Positions 1 to 60,769 of a stretch of DNA of 64,000 nucleotides are shown piece by piece. A model generated the notes under the pieces. It was not told the origin of the DNA. It was given only the letters and a program-made list of their open reading frames with translations, and ran no database searches. Position 1 is the first letter of the stretch. Every line of letters starts with the position of its first letter. Origin of the DNA: Minisyncoccota bacterium (GTDB lineage: Bacteria > Patescibacteriota > Minisyncoccia > Phycocordibacterales > Phycocordibacteraceae); assembly GCA_018062765.1 (NCBI GenBank), contig JAGORR010000001.1:78638-142637 (forward strand), read 5' to 3'. A program made the position numbers and the translations under genes.

Positions 1-424
1 TTTCTGCAGCAAGGTACGTGAATAGATTCCCGCTCGCACGCATCGCATATCGCACCTCGAGGTTCGAAAGCTGATCAGATGTCTCGAGGCTCGTCGTTGC
101 TGTGTCTGTCCGGCGCAATGCAACCGCTCCTTCGGCAACTGGCCCAGGAGTGATTTTCACGAGGCGGGGAGCAACATCCGTAGCGGTACCTCCCTCTCCA
201 GCGTCTTCGCCCCATCCGATTGTCCCCTCTTCAGGGTCGTCCCCTCCCCAGTCATCAACACCGCCACCGCCACCGGTTTCACCATCCCCTACTGGCTCGA
301 ACGGATTCGTGACGCCAGGTTCTGCAACGAGGCCGTCGTCGCCAGGTACTAGGTAGAAATAGAGCGCGACAGCGATCCCAACGAGGACGATGACGACGGC
401 GAGTATGGGAAGAAATTTACGCAT
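1..424 (-). CDS. Partial CDS whose 3' part lies beyond the left edge. N-terminal TM anchor followed by a Gly/Asp/Glu-rich low-complexity region. Most distal gene seen of the minus-strand T4SS-like operon.
   Basis: ATG at 424-422 on the minus strand, 4 nt after the stop of the upstream ORF. The frame stays open to position 1 and is absent from the ORF track because there is no stop in the window. Plus-strand ORF 102-356 is its antisense shadow. Confidence 0.45.
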   Translation of the reverse strand, partial: MRKFLPILAVVIVLVGIAVALYFYLVPGDDGLVAEPGVTNPFEPVGDGETGGGGGVDDWGGDDPEEGTIGWGEDAGEGGTATDVAPRLVKITPGPVAEGAVALRRTDTATTSLETSDQLSNLEVRYAMRASGNLFTYLAAE

Positions 425-427
425 AGG

Positions 428-1447
428 CTATTGGTCTCGGGACGAACGGCACCACTTATCGTCTTCGAAGTAGTTGCAGATCCGTGTGCGCTCTGGAGGA
501 AGAGGATTGAGGTCCATGTCGAGCGCTGAGTCGTGTCCTCCGCCTTGGCAGGAATCGTCTATCCCGTAAGCAAAAAGCGTACTCGGGCAAAGGCCGAATT
601 CGGCAAAGCCGCCGCAGAAGTCTTGCTGCTTTTCCTCGCTCAAGCCGACTTTCGCGTATCCGTACGAGGAGAGCTTACTGCACTCGGAAATGAGCGTCGC
701 ATTCTTTTGGCTATCAGTAACGTTGGATACTCGTATCGTCGGATTATTGTCCTGATAGAAGAATCCGTCGAAATCCATGTAGAGGCCGAAACCGGTCTCG
801 AGCCTGCACACGGCGAGTACCCCGTTTGCAACTACGTGGTGGTCGAACTCGTAATCGCCTTCGGAACATCGCTGGCTCCGGAACTCCTCGAGTTTCGCCG
901 AGAGGCTCGCATCGTCGGATGCAGGGAAGAGTTTCGCTCGTACGTAAACGCCATTAGGAATCAAATCTATCCCCTCAGGAGGAACGGGCGGGCCTTCATC
1001 TGTGCGATCGGAAAAATCAGGCTGCAGCTCCTCAAGACTCCCTTCGCATTCCGCGTTTCCAGTAAGACTCAGCGAGAGAATGCACGGGTTGATGATATTG
1101 AAGACGATGACTGGGGACAGGACCAATACGAGTCCCATGATGGCTACCGTAATGAGGTGGCGCGCCTGGCTCTTTTCCGTGAAGCTGTCCGTAAGCATCC
1201 ACAGAATGCCGCCGCGTACTATCTGCAGCACCGCAAGCACCACCGCAATGCCTATGACGAGCGTGTAGACCGTATTAAGGAACATTGGCAGATTGTCCTG
1301 CTCTTCGGCAAGCGCGCCGAACGGCCCGTCCTTCTCGGTAAGTAGAACGAAATCACCAGCTGCATCCTGTGCGGACGCCGCAAGAGGCAGCATGAAGGCG
1401 CCAAGGGCGAGGAGTGCGCGCGAAAGCATCTTCATAAGGTATCTCAT
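428..1447 (-). CDS. Exported membrane protein with T4SS-pilin-like (VirB2/TrbC-like) topology plus a Cys-rich C-terminal domain of about 220 aa.
   Basis: Signal peptide (MLSRALLALGAFMLPLAASAQDA), then two hydrophobic helices within the first ~120 aa, then about ten Cys. ATGA overlap with the upstream gene. Confidence 0.4.
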   Translation of the reverse strand: MRYLMKMLSRALLALGAFMLPLAASAQDAAGDFVLLTEKDGPFGALAEEQDNLPMFLNTVYTLVIGIAVVLAVLQIVRGGILWMLTDSFTEKSQARHLITVAIMGLVLVLSPVIVFNIINPCILSLSLTGNAECEGSLEELQPDFSDRTDEGPPVPPEGIDLIPNGVYVRAKLFPASDDASLSAKLEEFRSQRCSEGDYEFDHHVVANGVLAVCRLETGFGLYMDFDGFFYQDNNPTIRVSNVTDSQKNATLISECSKLSSYGYAKVGLSEEKQQDFCGGFAEFGLCPSTLFAYGIDDSCQGGGHDSALDMDLNPLPPERTRICNYFEDDKWCRSSRDQ

Positions 1448-2469
1448 AGGCCGAAGAATCCTGAATCAGGACTTGAGCCGTACCGGATACTCGCCTTCGC
1501 GTCGGCACTGTAGTATTCTCCCGCCTGCCGCGCATTTACCGAAAGTGCAGCTACGCCAGCCTCGCTCCCCGTCGTGCGCACGGTAATAGAGTCCTCCTGA
1601 CCGACTTCACTCGACCCCAACTTCCAGGTAAGCGTTGGACGACTCGAAAAAAAGTATGGAACGACCCGGAATGCTTCTTCGGTCTCTTTTAGGTCGTATG
1701 TGCCAGTAACTGCGCGCAAGAAACGAGGGCCTTCAAGTGGTCCGTCCTTATAGATGCGCACCAAGGGCTCGGTTGGCGCGATGCGCACGCTCGCTTCCCC
1801 GACGATAGCGCCGTCCCGACTCGAAACGGTCAGTGATACGCTCGCGTCACGGAACAGGACGGGAGCTGTTGCGGTGAGTACCGATTTCCCGAGCCCTGAA
1901 TCCGCGGTGAGGATGCGCCCGCCGGACTTCCAGGTATAGATAAGATCAGAGGATGCGATACGGGACCCGGGTGACGTCCGCAAGTCCGCAAGTGCAACGA
2001 CGCGCACCCGGCCCTCAGGAGCGACGAGCGCTCCACCCTGATAGAACGCGTGGGACGTGGAGATTGCGTCTATAACTAAAGAAACATCGGCGGGTCGTAT
2101 GGTGAGTTCCTCCGTGTAGACGCCGTCGGGCGCCGTCACCGTTACCTTCACTGGTACGCTCGTACCTATTGCGCCGATAGGAATCTGGTAGCTTTCCCGA
2201 CCGGAACCGCGACCGACCTCCTTCCCCGCCGCGACAACTACCACCGTGCTGCCCGAAAGATCGACTAACGTACTTTGTGGTGTGAGCGTAACGGTCTCGT
2301 ATGGGCGCGGGTAGCGCGGCGAGAGGGTTACGGTAAGCGGATCGACGCCGCTCATCGATTGCGAGGCAGCGAAAACCGGCACGAGCAGGATGAGGAGTGT
2401 GAGAAACCCTCGTATCATCGAGATAAGTATACCGTAGGCGTCAGTAGTTACGCTGCTTGCTGCGCCCAT
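1444..2469 (-). CDS. Secreted hypothetical protein of the T4SS-like cluster.
   Basis: Long ORF with an N-terminal hydrophobic signal (FLTLLILLVPVFAASQS). Translationally coupled to its neighbours. Confidence 0.5.
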   Translation of the reverse strand: MGAASSVTTDAYGILISMIRGFLTLLILLVPVFAASQSMSGVDPLTVTLSPRYPRPYETVTLTPQSTLVDLSGSTVVVVAAGKEVGRGSGRESYQIPIGAIGTSVPVKVTVTAPDGVYTEELTIRPADVSLVIDAISTSHAFYQGGALVAPEGRVRVVALADLRTSPGSRIASSDLIYTWKSGGRILTADSGLGKSVLTATAPVLFRDASVSLTVSSRDGAIVGEASVRIAPTEPLVRIYKDGPLEGPRFLRAVTGTYDLKETEEAFRVVPYFFSSRPTLTWKLGSSEVGQEDSITVRTTGSEAGVAALSVNARQAGEYYSADAKASIRYGSSPDSGFFGL

Positions 2470-3023
2470 TCCTCGTTATCGTTTGCCGCCGCATCCCTCG
2501 CTATGCTCGCCTCTTCGGCAGCAAGCCACCTGTCATATTTCTTACGGGCTTCCCTGTCGTCGCTACGGACGGTCTGTGTTATCGCCCAAATGCTCATTGT
2601 CGACCATGGTAATACGTTCACATACGGAAGGAATTCGAGAATGCTATTGCCAGCCATGATGAATATGCGTGCCCCCATCTTATCGAGGAAGCCGACACCT
2701 ATAAGACGGAACCATGCGATAAAGACCAGTATCGATATAGCGCTTAGAGCCGCACCGATAATCCAGCCAAGCATTGCGATGCCCACTCCCACTCCCACCG
2801 AGTAGGACGCCACTAACGAGAGACTTGAGACGTAGCAGGCGACGTCTCCAGCCCACACACTCCCTGCCCAACCCTCGACCCAATATTTCGCAAAATAACA
2901 GATCAGTAGGGGCGCAAACACTACCATCAGGGCCCCTATAGTCTGAAGCATTTCAAACGTTAAAGCTACCGCGATCATCCGTATCTGACGGCCGCGCGGC
3001 ATCTTTGGTTCTGGTTTATTCAT
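2448..3023 (-). CDS. Polytopic membrane protein (about 4 TM) of the T4SS-like cluster.
   Basis: ORF with four hydrophobic segments. Its ATG overlaps the stop of the VirB4-like gene (ATGA). Confidence 0.5.
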   Translation of the reverse strand: MNKPEPKMPRGRQIRMIAVALTFEMLQTIGALMVVFAPLLICYFAKYWVEGWAGSVWAGDVACYVSSLSLVASYSVGVGVGIAMLGWIIGAALSAISILVFIAWFRLIGVGFLDKMGARIFIMAGNSILEFLPYVNVLPWSTMSIWAITQTVRSDDREARKKYDRWLAAEEASIARDAAANDNEEWAQQAA

Positions 3024-4852
3024 GGACGGCGGTCCTGGTCCGCTTCAGCAGCGAGCCGTTGTTTTTCCCGTTTGATTGAAAGAATCTGAGAAGGGTCCGA
3101 GGTGATTATCTGGTCCTCCGTGTATGAGGCGACAACCTTGATGGCAACATGCTTGAGGCCAGCAAAGAATAGCCCGTCCCCCACCCCAGCCTCTAGTAGG
3201 AGGAATTTTTCCTGGTCAGTAAGGTTGAATGTTTGCTTCAGGAGATCAATCGTCGTTGGCGACTGCTTCAAAAGAAGCTGCATGGAAGAGTTTGTGAGTA
3301 TCGGGCGCCCATATGGTGAGCGGAGGAAGTCCTCGACGTCCTGGGTAACGGTTGCGAGCCCTAAATAGTATTTACGACCGCGCTTGGCGAGACTGTAGAG
3401 GAATGACGCGGTGTCATCCGATTTCATCATCCACCAAGCCTCGTCGATGACGAGAAGACGCTTTCTCAGCTCGCGCCGTACGGCGTTCCAGATGTAGTGC
3501 GTAATGATATACATCGCAACCGGTTTCAGTTCATCCTCCATATCACGCACCGAGAAGACGATGAACTGCTTATTGATATCGATATTCGTCGGCTGATTCA
3601 GGAAGCCGGCCCAAGTACCCTTTGTGTATTTCGACAGACGCGTCACGAGGGATTCGCTTCCCTCCATCCCGGAGAGTACTGATTCGAAATCCGATAGGAG
3701 CGGTGCGTCCATCCCAGTGAAGTCGCGATTCCCGGTGATGTCCTTAAGGGCATAGGTTTCCGTAATAGCGCGATCGATGATGGCGTCCTCCTCCGGCGTG
3801 AGTCCCCCGAGCATGATGCGGAAGAGACCGACGAGGTTGATGATGACCGAACGCAATATGTCGTTTGGCTCCTCCCCTTCCCGCACGGGCGGAAGATCGA
3901 AAGGATTGATGTGATGCTCCGAGGAAAGCGAGATGTTGAAAAGGCGGCCGCCTGTTGCCTCCGCAAGGTATTCGTACTCGCGCTCAGGGTCGATGACGAT
4001 GACTTCTGTATCGAACATAAGCGAACGGAGAATTTCGAGCTTCACTGCGTAGGATTTTCCGGAGCCCGACTTCGCGAATACGACCGAGTTGTAGTTCTCT
4101 AGAGAGAATCGGTCGAAGAGGACGAGGGATGAGTTGTGGCGGTTGATGCCGTAGAGGATGCCCTTATCGGAGGTGAGGTCGTAGGAGACGAACGGGAATA
4201 GAGAAGAGAGAGGTGAGGTATTGAGTTTCGAATGGACGCCTAGCTCGTCGAGCTCCAGGGGAAGCGTTGAGCGGAAGCCCTGCTCCTGCTGGAATATCGC
4301 AGGCTTTGTGTATACGAGTTTAGCGTCGAGGATACCTCGTAATTTTCCTTCAAGATTATCGAGCTCGTCCTTACTGTCTGCGTAAATGGTTAGGTACAGT
4401 CCGACCTCAAACAAGCGCTCCTGTGCCTGCTGCAGCTGGTCCCGTAGACGCTCCAGGTCCTGGTATGAGGTATCGAGCATTGGGTCGCGCACAAGACCTT
4501 TTTGCGCGCGGTCGGCCTGCTGGCTCTCCACTTCCGCGACTTTCTTCTGGAACTGGCGAAGGATCTGGCCCGTCTCTATGGGGTGGATGAAGATGCCGAC
4601 ATCGAATACTTGGTCCAAATTAATAACCGGGGAAAACCAGTCGTCGGACAAAAACCGCGGATACGAGATGGTGTAAAAGGAGCGCGCAAACTTGGCGCCA
4701 AGCTCCAATTCCCTGCCGGTGACCTTGAGTGCTGCTGGCGCGATAGTGTCCGCCAGGTCTAAGGCTCCCTCTGCATAGATATCCTTAGGAAGCACAGACG
4801 CGATGTCTGGCGCCTCTTCTTTCTTACGGTTAAGGAAATCGAGGAGTGCCAT
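3020..4852 (-). CDS. virB4: VirB4/TrbE/PrgJ-family T4SS ATPase, C-terminal ATPase portion.
   Basis: Walker A (VVFAKSGSGKSYAV), VirB4-type Walker B (LVIDEAWWMM) and a DPEREY motif. The ORF-track start at 4894 (TTG) would translate the upstream heptamer repeat (LYAARCHLYA). Start is placed at the ATG at 4852 (MALLDFL...). Confidence 0.8.
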   Translation of the reverse strand: MALLDFLNRKKEEAPDIASVLPKDIYAEGALDLADTIAPAALKVTGRELELGAKFARSFYTISYPRFLSDDWFSPVINLDQVFDVGIFIHPIETGQILRQFQKKVAEVESQQADRAQKGLVRDPMLDTSYQDLERLRDQLQQAQERLFEVGLYLTIYADSKDELDNLEGKLRGILDAKLVYTKPAIFQQEQGFRSTLPLELDELGVHSKLNTSPLSSLFPFVSYDLTSDKGILYGINRHNSSLVLFDRFSLENYNSVVFAKSGSGKSYAVKLEILRSLMFDTEVIVIDPEREYEYLAEATGGRLFNISLSSEHHINPFDLPPVREGEEPNDILRSVIINLVGLFRIMLGGLTPEEDAIIDRAITETYALKDITGNRDFTGMDAPLLSDFESVLSGMEGSESLVTRLSKYTKGTWAGFLNQPTNIDINKQFIVFSVRDMEDELKPVAMYIITHYIWNAVRRELRKRLLVIDEAWWMMKSDDTASFLYSLAKRGRKYYLGLATVTQDVEDFLRSPYGRPILTNSSMQLLLKQSPTTIDLLKQTFNLTDQEKFLLLEAGVGDGLFFAGLKHVAIKVVASYTEDQIITSDPSQILSIKREKQRLAAEADQDRRP

Positions 4853-4858
4853 ACTAGA

Positions 4859-4893
4859 AGTAGCGTACAGGTGACAGCGTGCAGCGTACAGCA
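4859..4893. repeat. Tandem heptamer array, 5 units: AGTAGCG TACAGGT GACAGCG TGCAGCG TACAGCA. On the gene's sense strand this reads CTGTACG CTGCACG CTGTCAC CTGTACG.
   Basis: Read directly from the sequence. It ends 7 nt upstream of the virB4 C-part ATG. Confidence 0.7.
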
Positions 4894-4920
4894 AAAGCGG
4901 TGCAGGAGTGTTCAGTCTGG

Positions 4921-4941
4921 ACGCTAGCCGCTAGACGCTTC
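4921..4941. repeat. Tandem heptamer array, 3 units: ACGCTAG CCGCTAG ACGCTTC. It is in inverted orientation relative to the 4859-4893 array.
   Basis: Read directly from the sequence. It lies immediately after the stop of the VirB4 N-part ORF. Confidence 0.6.
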
Positions 4942-4944
4942 ATA

Positions 4945-5577
4945 TCATTTTGTAAGCCTTATCGGGCTATCGAGCTCGCCGATGTTGAATGAGCGGTAGA
5001 GAAGCTCGATGATTTCCTCAGTGCCTAGGGGTACTGCGCGAATACCGGCCGAGTTTATGGCGCCTGCAGCCAGGGACATGCGCTGCTCGAGCTGGATGCG
5101 ATGCTCAGCGAATGCGTCGTTCCCTTCCCCGCCAGACCCGGATGACGGAGTGCGCTGGAGGAACGCGAGCGCACTCTTCACTTCCGAACCCGAGCCAGGT
5201 GCCAAAGGAACGACGATGTAGAATGTCTTCGTCATGATGTTTGCTTGATCAGCGAACGCGCGGACGAATTCCATGTATTCGCGTACCTGTATCTTCATGA
5301 GCTCGGTTTCCTGCTTATCTGTGCGCTCCTGAAGGAGTGCTAGGTACGGCCGGATATCCATGCGGCGGGAGTGCACAACAAGCTCCACGGAAAAATCGAG
5401 CGAATTGAGGAAGGTCTGGAATCCGCCGATGACCGCCCGCTGCTCGTCGTCGGATTTCAAGGAGAAGTTCACTGATGAGCACATGAGTATGCCCCGATAC
5501 GTGCCGTCCTTAAGGATGATGACCCCATTACGGACCTCCTTTACTGGAACAAACGACTGAGATGCTTTAGGCGCCAT
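4945..5577 (-). CDS. virB4: VirB4/TrbE N-terminal domain (CagE_TrbE_VirB-like), encoded as a separate ORF.
   Basis: The motif run VPVKEVRNGVIILKDGTYRGILMCSSVNFSLKSDDEQRAV...LNSLDFSVELVV matches the conserved N-terminal region of VirB4/TrbE proteins. It lies directly upstream of the ATPase part, in a different frame. Confidence 0.6.
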   Translation of the reverse strand: MAPKASQSFVPVKEVRNGVIILKDGTYRGILMCSSVNFSLKSDDEQRAVIGGFQTFLNSLDFSVELVVHSRRMDIRPYLALLQERTDKQETELMKIQVREYMEFVRAFADQANIMTKTFYIVVPLAPGSGSEVKSALAFLQRTPSSGSGGEGNDAFAEHRIQLEQRMSLAAGAINSAGIRAVPLGTEEIIELLYRSFNIGELDSPIRLTK

Positions 5578-5986
5578 GGTTTTCTTCCTGCGTGCGGTCC
5601 TTTATATCGAGGGACCATGCTAGGTCCCGAATCTTCGAGGACGACAGCCCGAGCTTCTGGCGGGCTTCTTCTGGGGCGACGACAGCTTTGGGTGCTTCTT
5701 GCGCCTTATCCTCCTTACGCCATACGTAGAGTTTCCCGCCAAACAGGTACGACACCTGTGCCTCGACAATCTCAACGAACGGCTTGTTGTTGACGCGATA
5801 GAACGCGAGGGCGCCAGAGAGTGCGCCGACGGGAAGTGCCACGATGAGGAACCCAATCATGGGAAGGTAGGCAAACGCGATGACGCAGATACCGATGCCT
5901 CCGGCAAGGTATATGAACTGCTTCAGCGTGAATGGTCCAAATATCTTCCCTTCCACTTCGAGAAACTGCGGTACTTGGTACTCCAT
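5567..5986 (-). CDS. PrgI/VirB3-like small T4SS membrane protein.
   Basis: N-terminus MEYQVPQFLEVEGKIFGPFTLKQFIYLAGGIG fits the PrgI-family pattern (VP..L....K.FG.T.KQ), followed by a TM hairpin. It sits in the canonical position upstream of virB4. Confidence 0.55.
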   Translation of the reverse strand: MEYQVPQFLEVEGKIFGPFTLKQFIYLAGGIGICVIAFAYLPMIGFLIVALPVGALSGALAFYRVNNKPFVEIVEAQVSYLFGGKLYVWRKEDKAQEAPKAVVAPEEARQKLGLSSSKIRDLAWSLDIKDRTQEENHGA

Positions 5987-6026
5987 CGCTCTATAGTATA
6001 CCGCCCGAGCGCCGAGTTTTGCGTGG

Positions 6027-6635
6027 TTATTGTGACGTACCCTCGTCTATGGGTTCACGATACGGGTCGCGAGCATAATTTTTTGGTACAGGAGCCGGAA
6101 GTGGCGCGATAGACGCAGGTGTTGTGACTTCACGCTCTGTTCGAGGGAGGCGGGGCTCGAAGACTGCTGGAGGTGTCACCGGCTCAGGGCGCGGCGCGGG
6201 AGGAGCAACAGGAGCAGAAGTTATCACAGGTGCAAGCGGCGCGGCTGGAGCGATTGGAGCAGTGGGTGGAGGAGTGGTGCCAAGAGGTGCAGGCACGTCG
6301 GTGAGTGGCGCGCGCGCAGGCTTCCCGGCCTCGCTCCGCATCTTCTCGTGGAGGGGCTTGAATATCGCGTCATTAAGTTCCTTGGCGATGAGAGAGGCTT
6401 TCAGATTAGATATGCCCATCTGCTCCATCTCCTGTATGAGCTGTGCAGGATTGATGAATCCGGACAACATAAGTCCAATGGACTCATCCAAGTCGCCTAC
6501 GACGTCTATGTGTAACTGGTACTTTGCACCTATGCGGCGCACTGCTGGCCCTAATTCACCGCTCGCGAGGTACTCACGAACAGAAAGAGGAAGACCGCGA
6601 TATGCCCGCAAAAGTTCTTCGTGTGGAATCTTCAT
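6027..6635 (-). CDS. Hypothetical protein with a Pro-rich C-terminal half (T4SS-like cluster).
   Basis: ORF with no TM segment. The C-terminal 90 aa are PAPxP-rich. Confidence 0.45.
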   Translation of the reverse strand: MKIPHEELLRAYRGLPLSVREYLASGELGPAVRRIGAKYQLHIDVVGDLDESIGLMLSGFINPAQLIQEMEQMGISNLKASLIAKELNDAIFKPLHEKMRSEAGKPARAPLTDVPAPLGTTPPPTAPIAPAAPLAPVITSAPVAPPAPRPEPVTPPAVFEPRLPRTEREVTTPASIAPLPAPVPKNYARDPYREPIDEGTSQ

Positions 6636-6641
6636 AGAGAG

Positions 6642-8933
6642 CTATAGTCCTGCAAAATCTTTCGGAAGCCCGAACAGACCGCGATCGAAATCATTACTCG
6701 TAAGATAATTATTGATACCTTCTATTTGCTTGGCGGAAAGTACGCCCGCAGCCTTACCTCGTCGAAGTTCAGCGATAACTTCCGCAGGGTCTGAGAACTT
6801 ACCCTCCGCCATACCTCGTTGCAAGTCGACTTGCGTGAAAGAATGCACGACAGCAGGTCGGGTATAGTCTTTAGCGCTTAGTTTGACCTTTGCCTTAGGC
6901 CCAAGACCGCTCGCCTGAGTCCTGATATTCACCTGTGATGCGGCTGATCCGTCGTCTTTCTCTATTAAGACGCGTAATTTACCAAAGTCCGATGAGTCCT
7001 TAACTGCGCGGCGTTGGTCATTGGTCAAGGCCTCACTCTTTTCAAGTGCCTCCAACTGTTCGTCGGAGAATTGGCCAGCAGCAAGCGCGTCTTCGAATGT
7101 CGCCGCGTTAAGCTTCGCAAACTCTGCCATATCCTTTGATGACCAGCGTTGTACCTCCTTCTTATCGTTTGTACCAATGGCCGCCACGAGTTTTTGGAAT
7201 CGCCCGCCTGCAACTTCGTCCTTAACGCTCTGATCGACCTTGTCGGTCTTCTGAATGTCGATGAACCGTTCAGTGCTGAGGTATTTCGCCGCCTCCTGTT
7301 TATCTGCATTTTTGAGTCTTTTGACGTACTCGAACGTGTCTCCCTGGTTCAGGCTCTGCAGGGTCTTCGAATACTCTTTCTCGGCTAGCATCCGCTTTGC
7401 ATCATCAGGCGCATCTTTTATGCTCTTAAGCTGCGTGCCAAGAGTGCTGAACGTGTGATCGCGATGAACTTCATGCGCGCGATGGTCACGCGCATGTTTC
7501 TCGTCATCCAGAGAAACACCAGCTACTTTTATTTTCTCGCGCTTATCGAGCGCGGATTGGATATTGGCGTCCGTCGTCGCAAGTATCTTGCTTCCTCTAA
7601 ACGCGGCGCCTATGCCAAGGCCATTATATGCCTTATCTGCCGCCCACATTCCAGCCTTCGCGCCATACCTAAGCCCCGTATTCCCTATCGCACGAGAAGG
7701 TTTTGATATTGGAGAGAGCGCTGCGCCGGTAAGACGTCGGCTCATGCCGATGGAGAAGCTCGCGCCGACCGCACCCATCTGTTTGGCGACAATGATGGAC
7801 GCCATAAGCATTCCCATGGAGATAACGAAGCCGAGTATCATTCGGGTCGTATTGGCCCAACCGGTGCCGCTGACGAGCGCGCTGAAATCGCGACTCTGTC
7901 CGATGATGAGCTGCGGCGAGGTCATCAGCGTCACACTGATGAGGAGGAACAGGAGGACAATAGGAGCAGTCGCGCTTTGGGCGATGAGCATGTGCCACCA
8001 CTGCTTCGCGCGCCCCTCTAGGGATGGTATGACCAGTCCAACGAAGCCGAGAGGGGACAGGATCATGAGGAATATGAGTACGAGGAAGCGCGCGATGAGC
8101 ATAAACGCGAGCGCAAGCATTACGAACGTAGCGACGATGAACAGGAGCGAGCCTAGTATGAGCGCAGCGAACCAGTTGTTCTCCAGCACCGTATTCTTAA
8201 GCTGCCCCGTCTGAAGCGTAGTTGCATCATAGAAATTCTGAAGTCCGACCATCTCCATAATGGCGTTCGAGACGCCCTCATTAGATGGCGACCAGCTTTC
8301 CCCCGGATCCGCGCCGAGCGCTTGCCTGCCCTCTCCGGGCTTCACCATGACGGAGTAGAACTGATAGGCGAACACGTTGCCAACGTCGATGATGGCGCGT
8401 GCAGCGAAGAGGCTGAAATTCACGGTAACGGCGACCAGGATGAGCTTCACGAGCATCTTCTTCGCGTTGTAACTCTGTACGTCGAGTATCGTCGCGACGC
8501 CGATAGCGACGAATCCGAATATGAGCGCAATGTTACCAAGATCGCGTAGCACCCTCCATGCATCGAGTATGCCGGGCATGCTATTCACGAAATCCCCCAT
8601 CTTAACGACTGTGTAGTAGACGGACGCGTTAAGCATCACGCCGGCGACTCCGGCGAGGTACGCGAACAGGGATAGCATCTTATACCCTATGGGTCCGTAG
8701 ATATCGTCTCCGGTCGTATGACTTCCAAAATTAGCGTTCGCGTCAGGGGTCCCTGCTTGCGGGGCAGCAGGAGGAGGACGATCCGGAAGCGTCAGATCAG
8801 GGGGCGAGTCCGGGGTCACTTCAGGAGGTGGAGGTGTCTGGGCAAATGCGAGACTAGGAAGCAGGAGCGAAAGCGAAAGCAGCAGGATGATACCTGCAGC
8901 CAGCCATGTCCTACCTGATACTCGGGAAGCCAT
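6642..8933 (-). CDS. Polytopic membrane protein, VirB6/TrbL/PrgH-like by topology and position.
   Basis: Signal peptide, at least 6 TM helices in the N-terminal 400 aa, and a large hydrophilic C-terminal domain. It lies upstream of the PrgI-like and VirB4 genes. Confidence 0.45.
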   Translation of the reverse strand: MASRVSGRTWLAAGIILLLSLSLLLPSLAFAQTPPPPEVTPDSPPDLTLPDRPPPAAPQAGTPDANANFGSHTTGDDIYGPIGYKMLSLFAYLAGVAGVMLNASVYYTVVKMGDFVNSMPGILDAWRVLRDLGNIALIFGFVAIGVATILDVQSYNAKKMLVKLILVAVTVNFSLFAARAIIDVGNVFAYQFYSVMVKPGEGRQALGADPGESWSPSNEGVSNAIMEMVGLQNFYDATTLQTGQLKNTVLENNWFAALILGSLLFIVATFVMLALAFMLIARFLVLIFLMILSPLGFVGLVIPSLEGRAKQWWHMLIAQSATAPIVLLFLLISVTLMTSPQLIIGQSRDFSALVSGTGWANTTRMILGFVISMGMLMASIIVAKQMGAVGASFSIGMSRRLTGAALSPISKPSRAIGNTGLRYGAKAGMWAADKAYNGLGIGAAFRGSKILATTDANIQSALDKREKIKVAGVSLDDEKHARDHRAHEVHRDHTFSTLGTQLKSIKDAPDDAKRMLAEKEYSKTLQSLNQGDTFEYVKRLKNADKQEAAKYLSTERFIDIQKTDKVDQSVKDEVAGGRFQKLVAAIGTNDKKEVQRWSSKDMAEFAKLNAATFEDALAAGQFSDEQLEALEKSEALTNDQRRAVKDSSDFGKLRVLIEKDDGSAASQVNIRTQASGLGPKAKVKLSAKDYTRPAVVHSFTQVDLQRGMAEGKFSDPAEVIAELRRGKAAGVLSAKQIEGINNYLTSNDFDRGLFGLPKDFAGL

Positions 8934-8938
8934 ATCGG

Positions 8939-10390
8939 TTAGCTTGTCGGGGTGCAGCGCAGGGAGGAGGTGCGCAGTTCCATATATAAGGAGGCTGGCG
9001 TGCCCTCTTCAGCTGCAAGTACCCCTGCTTCAGCAACCTCTGTGACAGAAGGGGTCGCAGGATTTGTCATGAGTGCTTGGAAGTCCTGGGCGACCGTTGC
9101 GACAGCGGTGGGATTCGCGCTCGTACGTGCCTCTAGGATTTCTGTGGTGATTGCCTGTAGCGCAGCGAGCGAGACGCCGACGCGCGCGAGTGCTGCATCC
9201 GCACGTGCTTTTGCGTCCGTTGCGCGCGCCTTCTCCTCATCCGTAGATTCATCGCAAGTAAGCGTTGACGATGCTACCGCCTCTATTTTCTGCCAATCCG
9301 TCTGATACGAAGCAAGGAGGGTTACTTGTCCCTGGATACCGCTTACAAGAAGCTCGTCGACAGATCCCCCGATAGGCGTTGTGGGAGGGGTGACCGGTGT
9401 CGGCGTCCCCGGTCTGTCTATATATCCTGAGCCGCCAGAGGATCGTGAGCCAATAGAAGAAAGTCCCTGAAGCGCCTGGCTTACAAGTTGGCTAACGAGC
9501 GCGTTCACGATCTCGTTTATCTCGTCAGCGACCTGGAGGCGCTGCTGCCCACCTGCCAAGGTCTCATTGAGCTGTTTTTCGATGACGGAACCTGGCGTCT
9601 CGATGGGGGCGTCGGCGCAGAATTCTTCCCCACCCAGATTGACCGCCGGCACAGGCGCGTTAATGCGGCCATCAGCGCCTGTTGTTGTCTGTCGGTCCCT
9701 GCACTCGCCGCGCCAAGACAGAAATCCGTTACCCCATCCGAGCTCCGTTATCCGCTTGTTAAGAGACGCTTCGATGCGGCGATTGAGCTCTTCTTTGGCA
9801 TTTAGATATGCGCCATGTGGGTTGTTTGCGCGATCTCCCGTGAGTGCGAACCACCCGTCCCAGCCGCCTTCGCTAAACCGACCGCGAGTGAACTCAAGAT
9901 CGTTCTCCACAGTGTCGCGAAGGGTGTACAGCTGCTCACGAAGGAACGCGTCGCCATTAGTCGAAAGGTAGTATCCGTACGCAACCGCCTCGACGGTACC
10001 CGAGAGCGGCGTGTCCATCATCTGATCGGCGAGCTGCCCGATGAATTCTGCGGCTACCGCGTCAGCGACCCCGCGCAGGTTCTGATTAAGGTCCTGGACG
10101 AAAGCCGGAGAGCCCTCGAAACCAGAGTTTATCCAATTGACGACGCTCCGCGACATCGACTCAAGGACGGTGTTCGCAAGCTGCCAAGCGACGCCGTCGA
10201 GGACCTGGTCGATATTGAGTTCTGCAGCATTTGTACCGAGAATGGCGTTTGTCGTTGCAAGGACTGCTTTATCGAGAACGAGCTGAACACCAAATTGTGC
10301 TTCAGCGCGTTGCGGTATTGCAAAGAGCGGCAGGATGAGCGCCAGCGTGAGCGCGGATGCGGTAGAACGATACAGGAGTGTACGCATCAT
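8939..10390 (-). CDS. Secreted hypothetical protein (T4SS-like cluster).
   Basis: Signal peptide ending in the AEAQF motif. A 483-aa ORF that overlaps its upstream neighbour by 4 nt. Confidence 0.5.
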   Translation of the reverse strand: MMRTLLYRSTASALTLALILPLFAIPQRAEAQFGVQLVLDKAVLATTNAILGTNAAELNIDQVLDGVAWQLANTVLESMSRSVVNWINSGFEGSPAFVQDLNQNLRGVADAVAAEFIGQLADQMMDTPLSGTVEAVAYGYYLSTNGDAFLREQLYTLRDTVENDLEFTRGRFSEGGWDGWFALTGDRANNPHGAYLNAKEELNRRIEASLNKRITELGWGNGFLSWRGECRDRQTTTGADGRINAPVPAVNLGGEEFCADAPIETPGSVIEKQLNETLAGGQQRLQVADEINEIVNALVSQLVSQALQGLSSIGSRSSGGSGYIDRPGTPTPVTPPTTPIGGSVDELLVSGIQGQVTLLASYQTDWQKIEAVASSTLTCDESTDEEKARATDAKARADAALARVGVSLAALQAITTEILEARTSANPTAVATVAQDFQALMTNPATPSVTEVAEAGVLAAEEGTPASLYMELRTSSLRCTPTS

Positions 10391-11364
10391 AGGCTGGTTG
10401 CAGAAAGGAGTGCGTAGAACCCGGCGCCGGCACCCGTTCGCGCAGCACCCGTTGCGTCGTACGCTTTCTTCACGGCTTTGAAGCCATCGATCATGCTGCG
10501 CGCATCCTTCTCATAATTTCCAAACCCAATCATCGCGCGCACAGGATCATCAGTGAGTGAAGCCATGTCCCCAATCGTCGCTCCGAGCCGTGCGATTGCG
10601 TTCGTAAGTGACTGATGTGCGCTCGTAAGTGCTATTGGCGCAGCGACCCCTCGGAGGCCTTCTGCTATCGCAACGTAATGGTCTCCTATCCGCTTTACCT
10701 GTGCGAGCGCATTCGTATCGCTCTTGAGCACTGCGTCGCTGAAATACGTAAGCTCGCTTTCCGGGAGCGAGAGCGCGTTCTTGGCAAATGCCTGCTCAGC
10801 CCCTGCAAGGTATGAGCTAGGGGTCGCTCCCTCGCTCGCTACGAAGTCGGCAACGACGTATGCGTCATCACGCGTCGCTTCGCGGCGGATTTCGTCAACC
10901 GCGCTTACGACGAACGAGCGCAGTGCCTCAGCGGTGAGTTTCTCCCCTCCCCCGGTAGTGACGTACGTCTCGAAGAACGTGAGCGCGAATTTCTCGGTGA
11001 GGGAACCTGGTGCCGGAGTTACCCCTGGCATGCTTGCGATGATGTCGCTTCCTATAGTGCCTTCGGGCGCCTCAATCGTGGGGCGCACGAGGCCCTGGGC
11101 AAGCGCCTCGCTATCCTTGATGTCGCTCCGTACCGAAGTAGCGTCCTCCGGGTCCATCCCATACAGGAGCTCCTGCCAGTCTGGAACGCCATCGGCATCC
11201 GTATCCTTCGCGGCGTATTCTTTAAGCACCTCCTCGGTCTCCTCTGCAGATAGCGTTGGCGTTGGTGGAGCGCCGTTTTGTATGTAGTAGGCGCCTCCGA
11301 TGAGCACAATCGCGATGAGCGATGCTCCTCCTACTATCCAGTGCGTTCGTGTGACAGCAATCAC
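10387..11364 (-). CDS. Membrane-anchored protein with an EF-hand-like Ca-binding loop. First gene of the T4SS-like operon.
   Basis: N-terminal TM segment (IVGGASLIAIVLIGGAYYI) and a DTDADGVPDWQE loop. Confidence 0.5.
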   Translation of the reverse strand: MIAVTRTHWIVGGASLIAIVLIGGAYYIQNGAPPTPTLSAEETEEVLKEYAAKDTDADGVPDWQELLYGMDPEDATSVRSDIKDSEALAQGLVRPTIEAPEGTIGSDIIASMPGVTPAPGSLTEKFALTFFETYVTTGGGEKLTAEALRSFVVSAVDEIRREATRDDAYVVADFVASEGATPSSYLAGAEQAFAKNALSLPESELTYFSDAVLKSDTNALAQVKRIGDHYVAIAEGLRGVAAPIALTSAHQSLTNAIARLGATIGDMASLTDDPVRAMIGFGNYEKDARSMIDGFKAVKKAYDATGAARTGAGAGFYALLSATSL

Positions 11365-11420
11365 GGCAGTTTCGCATTAATAGTATCACCGAAATCTCAC
11401 CATCCCCCCGAGAGCGGTGG

Positions 11421-12218: not shown

Positions 12219-12222
12219 ACGG

Positions 12223-14157: not shown

Positions 14158-14475
14158 ATAAGGAGTATAGCCAAAAACGGCCTTATTACTACGTTTTTTC
14201 GCTTTCTTGCCTGTAATACCCTGCAGATATGCGGTTTCTCTAGCTTTTCAACAGGGCTCCTTTCACTACATTGACCTCATATTCTCTTCACGGTACCCTA
14301 GTCAGGTTGGTTGCTACGGATGCACGAAAAGATACGGCTTAGGTAAGCCATATCCTGAACACGGAAGGTACGGAAGACATTCCCGAAACACCCTATCGCC
14401 TTTGATTTACAGACCTCCGAGTCTACCGCTTCGGCGGAGAATCGGAATACATACCTTGTTCTGGGTGCTATCCCT

Positions 14476-18161: not shown

Positions 18162-18182
18162 GCAGCGATACTAGCACACGCG

Positions 18183-20517: not shown

Positions 20518-20545
20518 AGCTATTAGCTTCTAGCTTTGAGCTTCC
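20518..20545. repeat. (AGCTANN)x4 tandem heptamer array: AGCTATT AGCTTCT AGCTTTG AGCTTCC.
   Basis: Four AGCT cores exactly 7 bp apart, 7 nt upstream of the NYN start codon. Confidence 0.7.
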
Positions 20546-22035: not shown

Positions 22036-22057
22036 CGGAGTGCGCTAGAATGCGCGC

Positions 22058-25792: not shown

Positions 25793-25863
25793 GCGGCTAT
25801 GGTTTAGTGGTAGAACGCGTCCTTGCCAAGGACGAGTCGGGAGTTCGATTCTCCCTAGCCGCA
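25793..25863 (+). tRNA. tRNA-Gly (anticodon GCC), no encoded CCA.
   Basis: Acceptor GCGGCTA/TAGCCGC, anticodon stem CGTCC/GGACG, loop TTGCCAA, T-arm GGGAG TTCGATT CTCCC. Confidence 0.85.
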
Positions 25864-25970
25864 CTAAGAAAAGCGAAGCTTTGCGTGTACAGACGAGGGA
25901 GGATCGAAGGCCGGAGCGCGGCGGCGCGAGGCGAGGTCGCGGCCATTTTCAGAAGAAAATGAGCTGTGAC

Positions 25971-40051: not shown

Positions 40052-40056
40052 ATGAA

Positions 40057-40091
40057 TACAGGGTACAGCGTACAGGTTACAGCGTACAGTG
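40057..40091. repeat. Five perfect-phase tandem heptamers: TACAGGG TACAGCG TACAGGT TACAGCG TACAGTG.
   Basis: Read directly. On the sense strand it ends 5 nt before the ATG of the small membrane protein. Confidence 0.75.
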
Positions 40092-40126
40092 GAAAACGAA
40101 CAAACGCCGCGATGCGACGTTTGTTC
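40091..40126 (-). terminator. Rho-independent terminator for ppa (GAACAAACG / CGTTTGTTC followed by GTTTTCC on the minus strand).
   Basis: 9-bp stem with an 11-nt loop and a U-run. Confidence 0.5.
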
Positions 40127-40131
40127 CTGAC

Positions 40132-40159
40132 AGCTAAAAGCTAGAAGCTGTAAGCTATT
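40132..40159. repeat. (AGCTANN)x4 tandem heptamer array: AGCTAAA AGCTAGA AGCTGTA AGCTATT.
   Basis: AGCT cores at 40132, 40139, 40146 and 40153. The last core overlaps the ppa stop codon. Confidence 0.7.
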
Positions 40160-40673: not shown

Positions 40674-40679
40674 ATAAGA

Positions 40680-40714
40680 GATAGCGTATAGCTGACAGCG
40701 TGCGGCGTACAGGG
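40680..40714. repeat. Five tandem heptamers: GATAGCG TATAGCT GACAGCG TGCGGCG TACAGGG. On the sense strand these read CCCTGTA CGCCGCA CGCTGTC AGCTATA CGCTATC.
   Basis: This fills almost the whole 43-nt nusA-ppa spacer. It is 33/36 identical to the 4859-4893 array. Confidence 0.75.
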
Positions 40715-40716
40715 GA

Positions 40717-48391: not shown

Positions 48392-49058
48392 TATGGAAAG
48401 AGCAGCGAGCAGCGAAAAGTGTACAGCGACTAGGAATATGACCACCGCTTCTTCCGCGGCTATACGCTTTCGGGCCGGCTTTACGCTTATCGAGACGTTG
48501 ATGGTGATTGGTCTTACCGCCGTCGTGGGACTCGCGATTTCGAACATGATTTTGTTCACCTATCGCACGAACACCTACCTCTACCAGCAGAGCGCAGCGA
48601 CTGATAACGCGCGACGCGGCCTCGACCCGGCGCTGCAGAACCTACGCGAGGCGACCTACGCTGCTGATGGCTCGTATCCGCTGTCGACGGCAGCTACTTC
48701 GTCCGTAACTTTCTTCAGCGACGTCGATGTCGACGGATCGGTTGAGAAAATTCGTTACTATCTCTCAGGGACGACGTTCTATCGCACGATTACGAATCCG
48801 GCAGGTTCGCCCCCGTCATACGTGGGGCAGGCAGCCGCGACGTCGACTATCGCTTCCTACGTGAAGAATTTCTCCGCAAACGCGAGCGTGTTCCGCTATT
48901 ACGACAGCACCGGAACGGAGCTTGCAGCGCCCATTGATGTTGCTGAGGTGAGGAGTATCAGTATCTCGGTAATGGTCGACGTGGACCCAAACCGCACACC
49001 AACGACCTATTCGCTCACGGGCTCGGCGACATTCCGCAACCTGCGCGATACTGATTGA
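48372..49058 (+). CDS. Type IV prepilin (canonical G|FTLIE).
   Basis: RFRAG|FTLIETLMVIGLTAVVGLAIS. The heptamer array at 48401-48428 lies inside the annotated 5' end. The real start is probably the ATG at 48438. Confidence 0.6.
   Translation: MTRFSIDMERAASSEKCTATRNMTTASSAAIRFRAGFTLIETLMVIGLTAVVGLAISNMILFTYRTNTYLYQQSAATDNARRGLDPALQNLREATYAADGSYPLSTAATSSVTFFSDVDVDGSVEKIRYYLSGTTFYRTITNPAGSPPSYVGQAAATSTIASYVKNFSANASVFRYYDSTGTELAAPIDVAEVRSISISVMVDVDPNRTPTTYSLTGSATFRNLRDTD
48401..48428. repeat. Tandem heptamers AGCAGCG AGCAGCG AAAAGTG TACAGCG.
   Basis: Same TACAGCG-family unit as the 4859 and 40057 arrays. It ends 9 nt before the ATG at 48438. Confidence 0.6.
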
Positions 49059-49059
49059 T

Positions 49060-50589
49060 ATGGAAAGGAAAGCGTTTAGCGTAGAGCGTAGAGCATGTAG
49101 GAAAGACGGACCGGCTTCTTCTATACGCTATACGCTATCAGCTAGACACTCTCTGCAAGGCGGGTATCTCATGCTCCTGTCGCTCGTCTTTGGCGGGATA
49201 TTCCTAGGACTCCTCGGAGCGCTAACGAGCTACGTTCTTCTTGAGAATCGGCTTCAGGACCAGAAGGACGCGCAAGGTCGTGCATTTGCGATAGCTGAAG
49301 CAGGGCTCGAGTACTATCGATGGTTCTTGGCGCACTATCCGGGAAACGTCACGAATGGAGTTTCAGGCGGCCCCACAACGTTTACGCTTCCGTACTATGA
49401 CCCGGAGGGCGAGCAGCTCGGAAACTACACGCTGACGCTGAATCAGAATTCCGCCTGTGGCGCCGTCTCCTCCGTAGATATCGAATCGGAGGGCGCTACG
49501 CTCGATATGCCACAGGTGACACAGACGGTATCGGCGCGCTACGCGCAGCCTTCGGTTGGGCGTTATTCCTACGTATTGAATGACAGCGTATGGGCCGGCG
49601 CGGACCGCATCATCCTGGGGCCCTATCACTCCAATGGTGGTATCCGTATGGACGGGACCGCAAACTCATCTGTGTCGAGCTCGGTTTCGACTTGGAACTG
49701 CACGAGTAGCTACGGCTGTAGCCCAACGCAGTCGGCTGCGCCAGGCGTTGTTGGCACAGGCCCCAATCAGAGTCTTTGGACGTATCCGGTGCCGCAGGTG
49801 GACTTTGCGGCCATAGCTGCGGATTTTGCCTCGCTCAAATCGACCGCGCAGGCGCAGGGTCTCTACTATCCTCGCTACAGTAATACGAACAATCCGAATT
49901 CCTCTGCGTACTGGCACGGATACCACCTCACATTTAACGCAAACGACACCGTTACGGTTCGGCGCGTGACCTCAACAACGGAACTCGAGGTCGAGCCAGT
50001 GAATCCGGCGGAGACCCTCGATACAGACCGCGCGCTGATAGCGAACGAAACCATGTATGAAACGAGGACGATACCCGCTTCATGCGGACTCATCTACGTG
50101 GAGGATCACGTATGGATAGATGGCACCATCCCGTCTGAAGTGACGGTCGTTGCCGCTAATACAGCGTCGGGGCTCTCACCAAACGCATACCTGCGCAACA
50201 ACATCGTGTATGAAAATACAGACGGTAGTTCTGGCCTCACACTTATTGCGGAGAACAACGTGCTGATTGCACCTAACGCGCCTGCTGCAATGACCCTGAA
50301 CGGCATCTTCATCGCACAGAACGGTGCGTTTGGTCGGAACCTCTACTACAACAATTCCCGGACAGCATGCCACTCAACCTATGAACCGAAAACATCTCTC
50401 ACCATCCTTGGCACCACGGTCTCGAACAAGCGCACCGGAACCAAGTGGACCGGCGTTTCCTGCTCGGGCGGATACGCGGGCTTCGGTACCCGTATCGACT
50501 CCTACGACGAGCAGATGGCCATAGATCCACCACCCTTCACTCCTATCGTTTCGACCGATTACGAGATTATGGATTGGCGTGAACGGTAG
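49060..50589 (+). CDS. Pseudopilin/minor-pilin-like protein (N-terminal hydrophobic helix, no Glu5).
   Basis: SLQGGYLMLLSLVFGGIFLGLLGALTSYVLLE. 509 aa. Two heptamer arrays (49075-49102 and 49121-49148) lie in its annotated 5' region. The ATG at 49171 is an alternative start. Confidence 0.45.
   Translation: MERKAFSVERRACRKDGPASSIRYTLSARHSLQGGYLMLLSLVFGGIFLGLLGALTSYVLLENRLQDQKDAQGRAFAIAEAGLEYYRWFLAHYPGNVTNGVSGGPTTFTLPYYDPEGEQLGNYTLTLNQNSACGAVSSVDIESEGATLDMPQVTQTVSARYAQPSVGRYSYVLNDSVWAGADRIILGPYHSNGGIRMDGTANSSVSSSVSTWNCTSSYGCSPTQSAAPGVVGTGPNQSLWTYPVPQVDFAAIAADFASLKSTAQAQGLYYPRYSNTNNPNSSAYWHGYHLTFNANDTVTVRRVTSTTELEVEPVNPAETLDTDRALIANETMYETRTIPASCGLIYVEDHVWIDGTIPSEVTVVAANTASGLSPNAYLRNNIVYENTDGSSGLTLIAENNVLIAPNAPAAMTLNGIFIAQNGAFGRNLYYNNSRTACHSTYEPKTSLTILGTTVSNKRTGTKWTGVSCSGGYAGFGTRIDSYDEQMAIDPPPFTPIVSTDYEIMDWRER
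49075..49102. repeat. Tandem heptamers TTTAGCG TAGAGCG TAGAGCA TGTAGGA.
   Basis: Read directly. TANAGCG-type units. Confidence 0.6.
49121..49148. repeat. Tandem heptamers CTATACG CTATACG CTATCAG CTAGACA. Inverted relative to the 49075-49102 array.
   Basis: Same units as the sense strand of the 40680-40714 array. Confidence 0.65.
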
Positions 50590-60335: not shown

Positions 60336-60743
60336 ATGGCGACCATCAATCAGCTTTCGAAGAAGCACCGCAAGGACAAGACTCGTAAGTCTAAGGTCCT
60401 TGCTCTTGGGCGTGGTTTCAATCACCTCGAGAACCGTCCCACCTACTACTCGGCCCCCTTCAAGCGCGGTGTCTGCACGAAGGTAACGACGAAGACTCCT
60501 CGCAAGCCTAACTCGGCTATTCGTAAGATTGCCCGTGTCCGTCTCTCTAACGGTATGGAGGTTACGGCGTATATCCCAGGCGAGGGACACAACCTCCAGG
60601 AGCACTCCGTCGTCCTGCTTCGTGGTGGTCGCGTGAAGGACATCGGTGTCCAGTACACTATCGTTCGCGGCAAGCTCGACACTGCAGGCCTTGAGAAGCG
60701 ACGCCGTGGACGATCGCGCTACGGAGCGAAGAAACCAAAATAG
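60336..60743 (+). CDS. rpsL: 30S ribosomal protein S12.
   Basis: [10 protein letters not shown]...[16 protein letters not shown]...[10 protein letters not shown]. Start trimmed to the ATG at 60336. Confidence 0.95.
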
Positions 60744-60769
60744 CTATCAGCTACTAGCTACGAGCTTTA
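60742..60769. repeat. (AGCTANN)x4 tandem heptamer array: AGCTATC AGCTACT AGCTACG AGCTTTA.
   Basis: AGCT cores at 60742, 60749, 60756 and 60763. The first core overlaps the rpsL TAG stop. It ends 12 nt before the rpsG ATG. Confidence 0.7.

Follow-up and report, generated by a model that had tools for sequence, protein, structure and literature searches.

What are the short tandem arrays of seven-nucleotide units that stand beside start and stop codons in the genome of a Minisyncoccota bacterium: regulatory sites, switches, or inserted DNA that operons tolerate? The stretch analyzed here (assembly GCA_018062765.1, contig JAGORR010000001.1, positions 78,638 to 142,637) is 64,000 nucleotides long and is called the window. 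An earlier note had listed six such arrays in it and had proposed an iterated protein-binding site or a slipped-strand (contingency) element controlling surface-structure genes. Over the 74 kb of the source genome examined (the 64-kb window and 10 kb past its left end), the arrays are periodic at 7 nt, have a conserved core, share irregular units, face empty sites in relatives, are fixed and follow an orientation rule. They are a new family within the known, still unexplained class of bacterial heptanucleotide repeats. As to their nature, we give about an even chance to a lineage-specific, non-coding, selfish or neutral insertion or expansion element of that class, which would survive where expression stays unbroken.

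Heptamer arrays in the window

Ten period-7 arrays of 3-5 degenerate units each were found at seven gene junctions of the window. Counted in this way they lie at 4862-4892 and 4917-4939 (an inverted pair), 20518-20545, 40057-40089, 40130-40157, 40683-40712, 48401-48431 (with a further run at 48447-48472), 49071-49098, 49121-49148 and 60742-60769. The unit reads AGC[G/T]NNN on one strand and is GCT-phased on the opposite strand. When the window was scanned by lag autocorrelation, lag 7 gave 6 regions with a self-match of at least 16/21, and lags 5, 8, 10, 11 and 13 gave none at that threshold; lags 6, 9 and 12 also scored, which is coding periodicity. The pattern AGCNNNNAGCNNNNAGC, in which AGC recurs each 7 nt, has 19 matches on the two strands of the window where 0.99 are expected, a number attained in 0 of 100 shuffles, and 18 of the 19 fall within arrays. 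AGC at 8-nt spacing had no match in the window. Tandem Repeats Finder (TRF) lists the arrays too, with 68-84% matches between units. Across 40 units, the A, G and C of positions 1-3 are retained in about 32-39, and G or T stands at position 4 in 34; positions 5-7 are free to vary. Three of the arrays are of a palindromic-core type, (AGCTNNN)4, in which AGCT is found in 12 of 12 units and the NNN are unrelated.

The spacers that bear arrays are short and separate genes of the same strand. They lie between a TraC-like gene and a TraG/VirB4-like ATPase gene, upstream of an NYN-domain gene, and between nusA and ppa, ppa and a gene for a 51-aa membrane protein, a CarboxypepD_reg protein gene and pilin-like gene 1, pilin-like genes 1 and 2, and rpsL and rpsG. 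Since nusA/ppa, rpsL/rpsG and the NYN gene are among these junctions, the arrays are not specific to surface structures, and the proposed control of surface-structure genes is not supported. The arrays contain no stop codons and have little secondary structure. The arrays upstream of traG, ppa and pil2 have irregular units in common together with the tail GCTGTCAsCTrTACGCTayTCT, and a spacer motif, ACCG(G)CTTyTT, is common to all three array pairs. These shared features indicate that the arrays are copies of one element and not independent products of slippage.

All six arrays of the earlier note are present at the coordinates it gave, but its list was incomplete: arrays also occur at 20518-20545, 40130-40157 and 60742-60769, and at 4917-4944 as the inverted partner of its first array. 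The identity of 33/36 that it had given for 4859-4893 and 40680-40714 is in fact 28/35. A profile search with nhmmer found no additional array copies, and no array was present in the 10 kb past the left end of the window. A family-specific pattern had 6 matches in JGI metagenomes, all unrelated (GC 42-70%), so that no further copies from the same species were recovered there. Avoidance of restriction sites was dropped as an explanation because GTAC and AGCT occur at their expected frequencies in the genome (observed/expected 0.98 and 1.04, respectively).

Empty sites in related genomes

Eight related loci with the same gene order were compared, four through NusA (76-87% identity; L124, L125/126, L127 and L128) and four through the TraG-like protein (85-90%; L157-L160). 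Proteins homologous to NusA and to the TraG/VirB4-like ATPase carry the labels Candidatus Paceibacterota, Minisyncoccia or Patescibacteria, and the window itself matches the metagenome-assembled genome (MAG) GCA_017991435.1. Period-7 arrays are absent from 7 of the 8 loci. At a threshold of 15/21, array density is 1.41 per 10 kb in the window genome versus 0.29 in the relatives, and 3 of the 4 arrays found in relatives belong to one genome. The nusA/ppa spacer, 43 nt long in the window, is 13-23 nt long in the relatives and carries no array.

The TraC/TraG junction is empty in 3 of 4 relatives, with the pattern TAA-T-ATG-GCx: TAA-T-ATG-GCA in L157 (90% identity; TAATATGGCA), TAA-T-ATG-GCC in L160 (87% identity; TAATATGGCC) and a similarly empty site in L159 (TAAACCATG). 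In the window the junction reads TGA-T-ATG-(88 nt)-T-ATG-GCA. Relative to the empty site TAA-T-ATG-GCA, the array at 4917..4944, a spacer and the array at 4853-4895 thus form a 92-nt insertion with TATG at each side. In the fourth relative, L158 (GCA_036261925.1, 86% identity), a different heptamer family (CTNCNTA / TANGNAG) occupies exactly the insertion nucleotide of the window, again between TATG and TATG. Its units are AGTATGC AGGAAGT AGCAGGC... in the R arm, which follows the stop codon, and CTGCTTA CTACCTA CTGCATA... in the F arm, which precedes the start codon. Arrays of L158 lie at 5172-5267 (this R..F pair), 10402-10434 and 14490-14532, the two extra ones adjoining the yidC and dnaN stop codons. 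Of the genuine TRATATG stop-start junctions in the window, four or five in number, 3 are occupied by R..F pairs, and the pair-bearing junctions retain the upstream TGA-T-ATG.

The orthologous junctions of the relatives carry neither arrays nor Shine-Dalgarno motifs; because they lack arrays, the arrays are not needed for expression. Within the species the arrays are fixed at the assembly level. Contigs from independent samples (a MAG from NCBI, an ENA assembly and three Logan runs) are 99.97-100% identical to the window, and no gap was found across any array that they cover.

Position and orientation of the arrays

The CT-phased strand reads 5' to 3' toward the adjacent end of an open reading frame (ORF) in 7 of 7 orientable arrays of the window. 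In mRNA sense this places (AGC....)n after stop codons (3 of 3 sense-AGC arrays are stop-proximal) and (....GCU)n ahead of start codons (4 of 4 sense-GCU arrays are start-proximal). The same rule is kept by 4 of 4 arrays in L158. Arrays stand about 2-22 nt from the annotated start codon, in agreement with the proximity to starts described earlier; several arrays are just as close to a stop, lying 0-16 nt past the upstream one. Random placement, or a REP-like element with no positional bias, had been named as what would refute the earlier proposal; placement and orientation are strongly non-random. In spite of this, the arrays behave as young dispersed insertions absent from close relatives.

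A wider set was obtained by scanning one genome per species with CTGTACGCNGNNNNCTGTNNNCTRTAC, which gave at least 118 stretches, placed with a simple ORF map. The matches listed include genuine (CTGTACG/CTGTACC/CTGAACG...)n arrays in Cloacimonadota, Omnitrophota, Planctomycetota, Gemmatimonadota, Acidobacteriota, Bacteroidota, Chloroflexota, Saccharibacteria, Bacillota and others, as well as false positives from Streptomyces kinase-coding sequence. Of 85 arrays among the matches listed, from dozens of genomes, 64 have their CTG strand aimed at the ORF end closest to them (binomial p=3e-6): 23/29 at co-directional starts, 21/29 at co-directional stops, 13/18 at convergent junctions and 7/9 at divergent ones. 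Co-directional junctions divide 23/8 versus 6/21 (Fisher p=1.7e-4), and arrays that have no partner keep the rule in 43 of 63 cases (p=0.005). A pooled orientation test that ignored which ORF end the array abuts showed no bias; the bias appears once the nearest ORF end is considered. Where the gap has at least 40 nt free, 41 of 67 of these arrays are no more than 10 nt away from an ORF end, whereas 13.7 would be expected. The median distance from array to stop or start codon is 4-8 nt.

Among the same matches, 24 CTG arrays have an inverted partner no more than 150 nt upstream and none has one downstream; the spacers measure 17-87 nt, and the order in a pair is always (..CAG)n followed by (CTG..)n. 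Often the two arms are not complementary, as in (CGTACAG)4...(CTGTCCG)4, and it is the CAG/CTG phasing that stays. Matched arrays flanking one ORF were seen in a single case only. No target-site duplication was evident in 17 cross-phylum pairs. In viral contigs (CTGTACG)3 had 3 matches versus 12 and 4 for two permuted controls, a comparison that is uninformative given the tiny counts and the CTG..CG skeleton that the controls share. On the Cloacimonadales chromosome OY759316.1 (L042, L043, L104 and other loci), CTGTACG-type arrays reach about 37 units, with higher-order periodicity of 14 and 21 nt; their flanks are conserved, with ..TTCTCTGAACCTGTTAC ahead of the array and GCTTCTGCC behind.

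Gene junctions bearing the arrays

The arrays of the window, together with one stem-loop, are as follows; sequences are in mRNA sense where so marked.

4853..4895, minus strand: F array, sense GCUGUAC GCUGCAC GCUGUCAC CUGUAC GCUACUU CUAGU; abuts the ATG (4852) of the TraG/VirB4-like ATPase gene
4917..4944, minus strand: R array, sense UAUG AAGCGUCU AGCGGCU AGCGUCC AG; begins 1 nt past the stop codon of the TraC-like gene (4945-4947)
20518..20545, no strand assigned: AGCT-type array, AGCTATT AGCTTCT AGCTTTG AGCTTCC; a few nt from the ATG (20511, minus strand) of the NYN-domain gene
40052..40094, minus strand: F array, sense ACUGUAC GCUGUAAC CUGUAC GCUGUAC CCUGUAU UCAU; runs to the ATG (40051) of the 51-aa membrane protein gene
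40098..40128, minus strand: stem-loop of 13 bp, stable, followed by GUUUUCC; terminator-like, between both arrays of the ppa/small-gene spacer
40130..40157, no strand assigned: AGCT-type array, sense UAGCUUA CAGCUUC UAGCUUU UAGCUGU CAGG; its first triplet is the ppa stop codon TAG (40155-40157)
40674..40716, minus strand: F array, sense CCUGUAC GCCGCAC GCUGUCA GCUAUAC GCUAUCU CUUAU AUG; occupies the entire 43-nt nusA/ppa spacer
48401..48431, plus strand: R array, AGCAGCG AGCAGCG ..AGCGACT; past the stop codon 48389-48391, junction TGA-T-ATG-GAA-AG
48447..48472, plus strand: F-like array, GCTTCTT CCGCG GCTATAC GCTTTCG; in frame within the prepilin leader of pilin-like gene 1 (annotated start 48438), with G/FTLIE next
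49071..49098, plus strand: R array, AGCGTTT AGCGTAG AGCGTAG AGCATGT; past the stop codon 49056-49058, junction TGA-T-ATG-GAA-AG
49121..49148, plus strand: F array, CTATACG CTATACG CTATCAG CTAGACA; 22 nt ahead of the annotated ATG (49171) of pilin-like gene 2
60742..60769, no strand assigned: AGCT-type array, AGCTATC AGCTACT AGCTACG AGCTTTA; overlaps the rpsL stop codon TAG (60741-60743), 12 nt ahead of the rpsG ATG (60782)

The gene downstream of the first array, taken earlier for a C-terminal part of virB4, encodes a full-length TraG/VirB4-like ATPase of 610 aa starting at 4852. As stated earlier, the N-terminal extensions LYAARCHLYA and LYAARCQLYA of the ORFs come from translating the repeat itself. 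The TraC/TraG insert forms a 29-codon relay ORF (4943-4854) that ends in TAG-T-ATG. A hairpin equivalent to that at 40098..40128 is present in the relatives; the simple terminator scan did not call the one in the window.

At the pilin-like genes the arrays extend into the leader peptides (a slash marks the end of the leader). The leader of pilin-like protein 1, MKRG/FTLVE in L125, corresponds in the window to MER, 25 further codons and G/FTLIE. For pilin-like protein 2, MKRTPQRG/YLML in L127 compares with MER, 26 codons and HSLQGG/YLML, the R..F pair being a 78-nt in-frame insertion. Since no in-frame start lies between the ATG at 48438 and G/FTLIE, translation must include at least the F half at 48447-48472. 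In the regions 48393-48479 and 49060-49173 the leaders are 14-29 aa and up to 35 aa long in the window versus 4-13 aa in the relatives. Gene callers choose internal ATGs (48438, 49171), which leaves the true start and leader length of the pilin-like genes uncertain.

Several features of the surrounding DNA were also recorded. The TraC-like and TraG/VirB4-like genes belong to a monoderm-type conjugation or type IV secretion system (T4SS)-like cluster (window 1-12300 and L148 11448-21020) with PrgI, the TraC-like protein, the TraG/VirB4-like ATPase and T4SS_pilin. It adjoins yidC-rnpA-dnaA-dnaN, which puts the start of the window about 2-3 kb from the presumed replication origin. Many genes have TAnnnT, often with GC or TGC before it, exactly 6 nt ahead of the ATG, the architecture of promoters for leaderless mRNAs (examples at 5987-6005, 14158-14175, 18162-18182, 22036-22057, 36375-36396, 51125-51148 and 58260-58281). 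Shine-Dalgarno motifs are rare in the genome, operon-internal genes included. At 51890-52177 an 'intergenic' stretch of 285 nt comes after a TAA-T-ATG junction; it opens with ATGAAGGGTCTCGAG and may contain an unannotated small ORF. An exact 19-nt copy of the 3' end of tRNA-Gly(GCC) lies about 125 nt downstream of it (25846-25864 and 25971-25989) and resembles the att-site scar of an integrated or excised element. The minus-strand ORF 42354-43331 contains 27/54-nt tandem repeats at 42750-42985; its L124 orthologue matches HemolysinCabind, and these are probably RTX-like coding repeats. GATC is strongly depleted throughout the window (155 observed versus 327 expected, 0.47), and other 4-bp palindromes are near expectation.

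Possible origin and function

If the arrays are a selfish or neutral element, it would have arrived recently in this Paceibacterota species and would usually settle in tight stop-start junctions of operons, with an R arm after the stop, a spacer and an F arm before the start, or with a single arm. Its copies would owe their spread to transposition, duplication or gene conversion, and not to slippage occurring independently at each site. The arrays are presumably transcribed within the operon mRNA, probably have no essential function of their own, and would persist where downstream expression is unharmed. They may be tolerated through retained translational coupling: ribosomes could read into or through the insert by way of the kept TGA-T-ATG, using the relay ORF at TraC/TraG or the leader extension at the pilin-like genes. 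Should the arrays be selfish DNA and nothing else, they would matter mainly for annotation, as start codons and leader peptides are mis-called nearby.

Several observations weigh against such an element. A neutral repeat should decay evenly, yet AGC(K) is kept, and AGCT in 12 of 12 units, which suggests constraint on the core. Neither random insertion nor slippage predicts the strict orientation rule or the close placement at ORF ends across phyla. Two heptamer families at the same nucleotide in two species imply either target specificity or selection. TATG on both sides, seen in two cases, is the evidence for a target-site duplication, and it is confounded because the ATG has to be restored anyway. 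Over the 74 kb of genome examined we identified neither a transposase nor any other gene that would mobilise the arrays.

The conserved core and the strict polarity, with one insertion point used repeatedly, would suit either a targeted insertion mechanism or iterated binding sites for an oligomeric or cooperative protein at ORF boundaries, modulating translation initiation, termination or read-through; we regard this as a serious but less probable alternative. The site could be DNA, read like the 7-bp omega-repressor heptads that work in either orientation, or RNA, like the sites of HutP, TRAP or cold-shock protein/S1, where the protein touches a short core at intervals of a few nucleotides. 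The binding site proposed in the earlier note is compatible with the make-up of the arrays: AGC with G or T at position 4 forms a 3-4-nt core at exact 7-nt phase, the intervening bases (positions 5-7) are free, each array has 3-5 units, and paired arrays stand 20-45 nt apart. The arms are not complementary and CAG/CTG phasing is kept, in the window as in other phyla, which fits recognition of a motif better than a helix. In addition, the arrays fall inside the ribosome footprint of stop and start codons, their polarity in the window is without exception (AGC stop-proximal, GCU start-proximal), and the same idea was put forward by MacGregor for TAACTGA repeats. However, the relatives express the same operons without arrays, and a Pfam scan of ten small window proteins revealed no ribbon-helix-helix (RHH) domain and no other obvious binder. 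The units differ between related species (AGCGTAC in the window versus TANGNAG in L158), and a rule that is symmetric to gene direction, holding at starts, stops, convergent and divergent junctions, is hard to square with one RNA-level function. It is doubtful, though conceivable, that CT(G)-phased heptamer arrays make up one cross-phylum class of ORF-boundary elements, with the window family and the TAACTGA and GGGAATC repeats among its members. A conserved machine moving along nucleic acid 7 nt at a time could impose the rule. The basis for such a class is the strict geometry, in which arrays abut a start or stop, the CTG strand leads into the ORF and pairs run (..CAG)n then (CTG..)n. The machine could be ribosome-associated S1 or cold-shock proteins, primase, or an insertion enzyme targeting stop-start junctions.

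Structure in the transcript is an unlikely basis for the arrays. The R and F arms would form an intercistronic hairpin, melted by the terminating ribosome (translational coupling) or acting as a processing or stability signal, and the geometry is suitable: the stop is followed within about 16 nt by the 5' arm, then come a spacer and the 3' arm, and the start is no more than about 22 nt beyond. Predicted folds do pair the arms at TraC/TraG, ppa/small gene and pilin1/pilin2, but their stability does not exceed that of dinucleotide shuffles (z=+0.6, -0.9 and +1.0). Of the seven junction RNAs folded, the ppa locus alone beat its shuffles, driven by its central hairpin of terminator-like form. RNAs of single arrays lack structure and are even less structured than shuffles (nusA/ppa z=+1.5). 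Moreover, the arms diverge independently and do not match unit for unit, half of the junctions have a single arm, and Rfam 15 gave only tRNAs at the gathering threshold and nothing at E<=1 in 39900-40800. Tandem -10-like elements for leaderless transcription of the downstream gene would be in keeping with the TAnnnT that this genome places 6 nt ahead of many ATGs, and GCTATAC or TACGCT units resemble the local GC-TAnnnT motif. We consider this very unlikely: the nearest TAnnnT of the arrays is 8-9 nt, not 6, from the ATG, sigma-70 promoter and terminator scans found no match within arrays, and arrays also follow stop codons and, in other genomes, occupy convergent junctions. Most improbable of all is the slipped-strand switch, in which a change in unit number would turn pilus or secretion genes on and off. 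Short tandem units do stand beside the start codons of pilin-like and secretion genes, and there is a precedent in Haemophilus, where 7-bp repeats drive phase variation of the hmw adhesin promoters. The units in the window, far from a near-perfect tract (68-84% TRF matches), are too heterogeneous for efficient slippage, and the independent assemblies, identical and free of gaps through the arrays, show none of the variation in unit number that closely related populations of a contingency locus would show. The housekeeping junctions nusA/ppa and rpsL/rpsG also bear arrays, and it is not obvious how changing an intercistronic spacer by 7 nt would turn a gene on or off. The contingency reading is not supported.

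Comparison with known systems

Among the long simple repeats of bacteria, heptamers are the most over-represented, as has been known since 1990-2007, and they have no accepted origin or function. In the account of Mrazek et al. (2007) given in PMC4679880 and PMC4692102, heptamers are the commonest long simple-sequence repeats in many bacteria and are sporadic. The arrays of the window agree with these in their tandem 7-nt periodicity beyond chance, intergenic over-representation and sporadic, lineage-specific occurrence, all of them lying in spacers or leader regions. They differ from the repeats so described in being short (3-5 units), degenerate, built on a 3-4-nt core and dispersed as near-copies, and are not perfect slippage products.

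The GGGAATC / GGGGAYT repeats of Xanthomonas and Nostoc (Rehm et al. 2015, PMC4692102) likewise have about four units, lie between aligned ORFs, form inverted pairs and combine conserved core positions with variable ones. Their polarity is also the same, one strand occurring within 50 bp after stops and the complement within 50 bp upstream of ORFs, a strand polarity kept by 7/7 arrays of the window and 4/4 of L158. They differ in being G-rich and G-quadruplex-forming and in unit number, which varies between related strains (PMC4692102). The AGCGTAC and AGCTNNN units have no G-runs, let alone four G-tracts, so a quadruplex cannot be the general explanation. The TAACTGA repeats of marine Beggiatoaceae, cyanobacteria and Bacteroidetes (MacGregor 2015, PMC4679880) resemble the window arrays in that 2-6 heptamers end a few nt ahead of starts and replace the Shine-Dalgarno site, in ribosomal-protein operons among others and with a patchy distribution across phyla. 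In CTG register (CTGATAA) they aim at the start codon, as do the F arrays of the window, which also stand a few nt upstream of starts that have no Shine-Dalgarno motif. The unit is different, however, and TAACTGA arrays contain stop codons, are mostly start-proximal and rarely form inverted pairs. Geobacter has the heptamer families GGACCGG and MTYCTGA.

Repetitive extragenic palindromes and the mosaic elements built from them (REP/BIME), their hairpin-forming doublets (REPIN) and miniature inverted-repeat transposable elements (MITEs) are also short, dispersed and intergenic, often inverted doublets in a fixed arrangement, transcribed in operons and matched by empty sites in relatives, as the arrays are. 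The arms in the window are direct heptamer arrays and not imperfect palindromes, are not kept complementary, and fold no better than shuffles, unlike the stable hairpins of REP doublets; over the 74 kb of genome examined, no RAYT or other transposase is known to go with them. With respect to MITEs, the termini are low-identity inverted heptamer arrays, and the TATG that flanks the inserts of the window and L158 is ambiguous as a duplication, the ATG having to be regenerated in any case.

The heptad operators of the omega repressor (pSM19035), the (UAG-N4)x3 sites of HutP and the RNA sites of TRAP are short-period iterations of a core, active in at least three units and sometimes arranged as two blocks about 20 nt apart. 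The window arrays have the same exact short-period iteration of a small core and, like RHH operators, consist of contiguous 7-bp heptads, direct or inverted. They differ in motif and do not appear to lie at promoters or attenuators; no promoter was found in or at the arrays, and no RHH domain among the ten small window proteins scanned. String searches of the literature found no mention of the present heptamers or of heptamer repeats in Patescibacteria. To the known class the window thus adds a minimal-genome case from the candidate phyla with datable insertions (empty sites in close relatives and a second family at the identical nucleotide), heptamer arrays that can lie in frame inside prepilin leader peptides, and a quantitative cross-phylum rule of orientation and position, valid for units that are not G-rich, which argues against a general G-quadruplex explanation.

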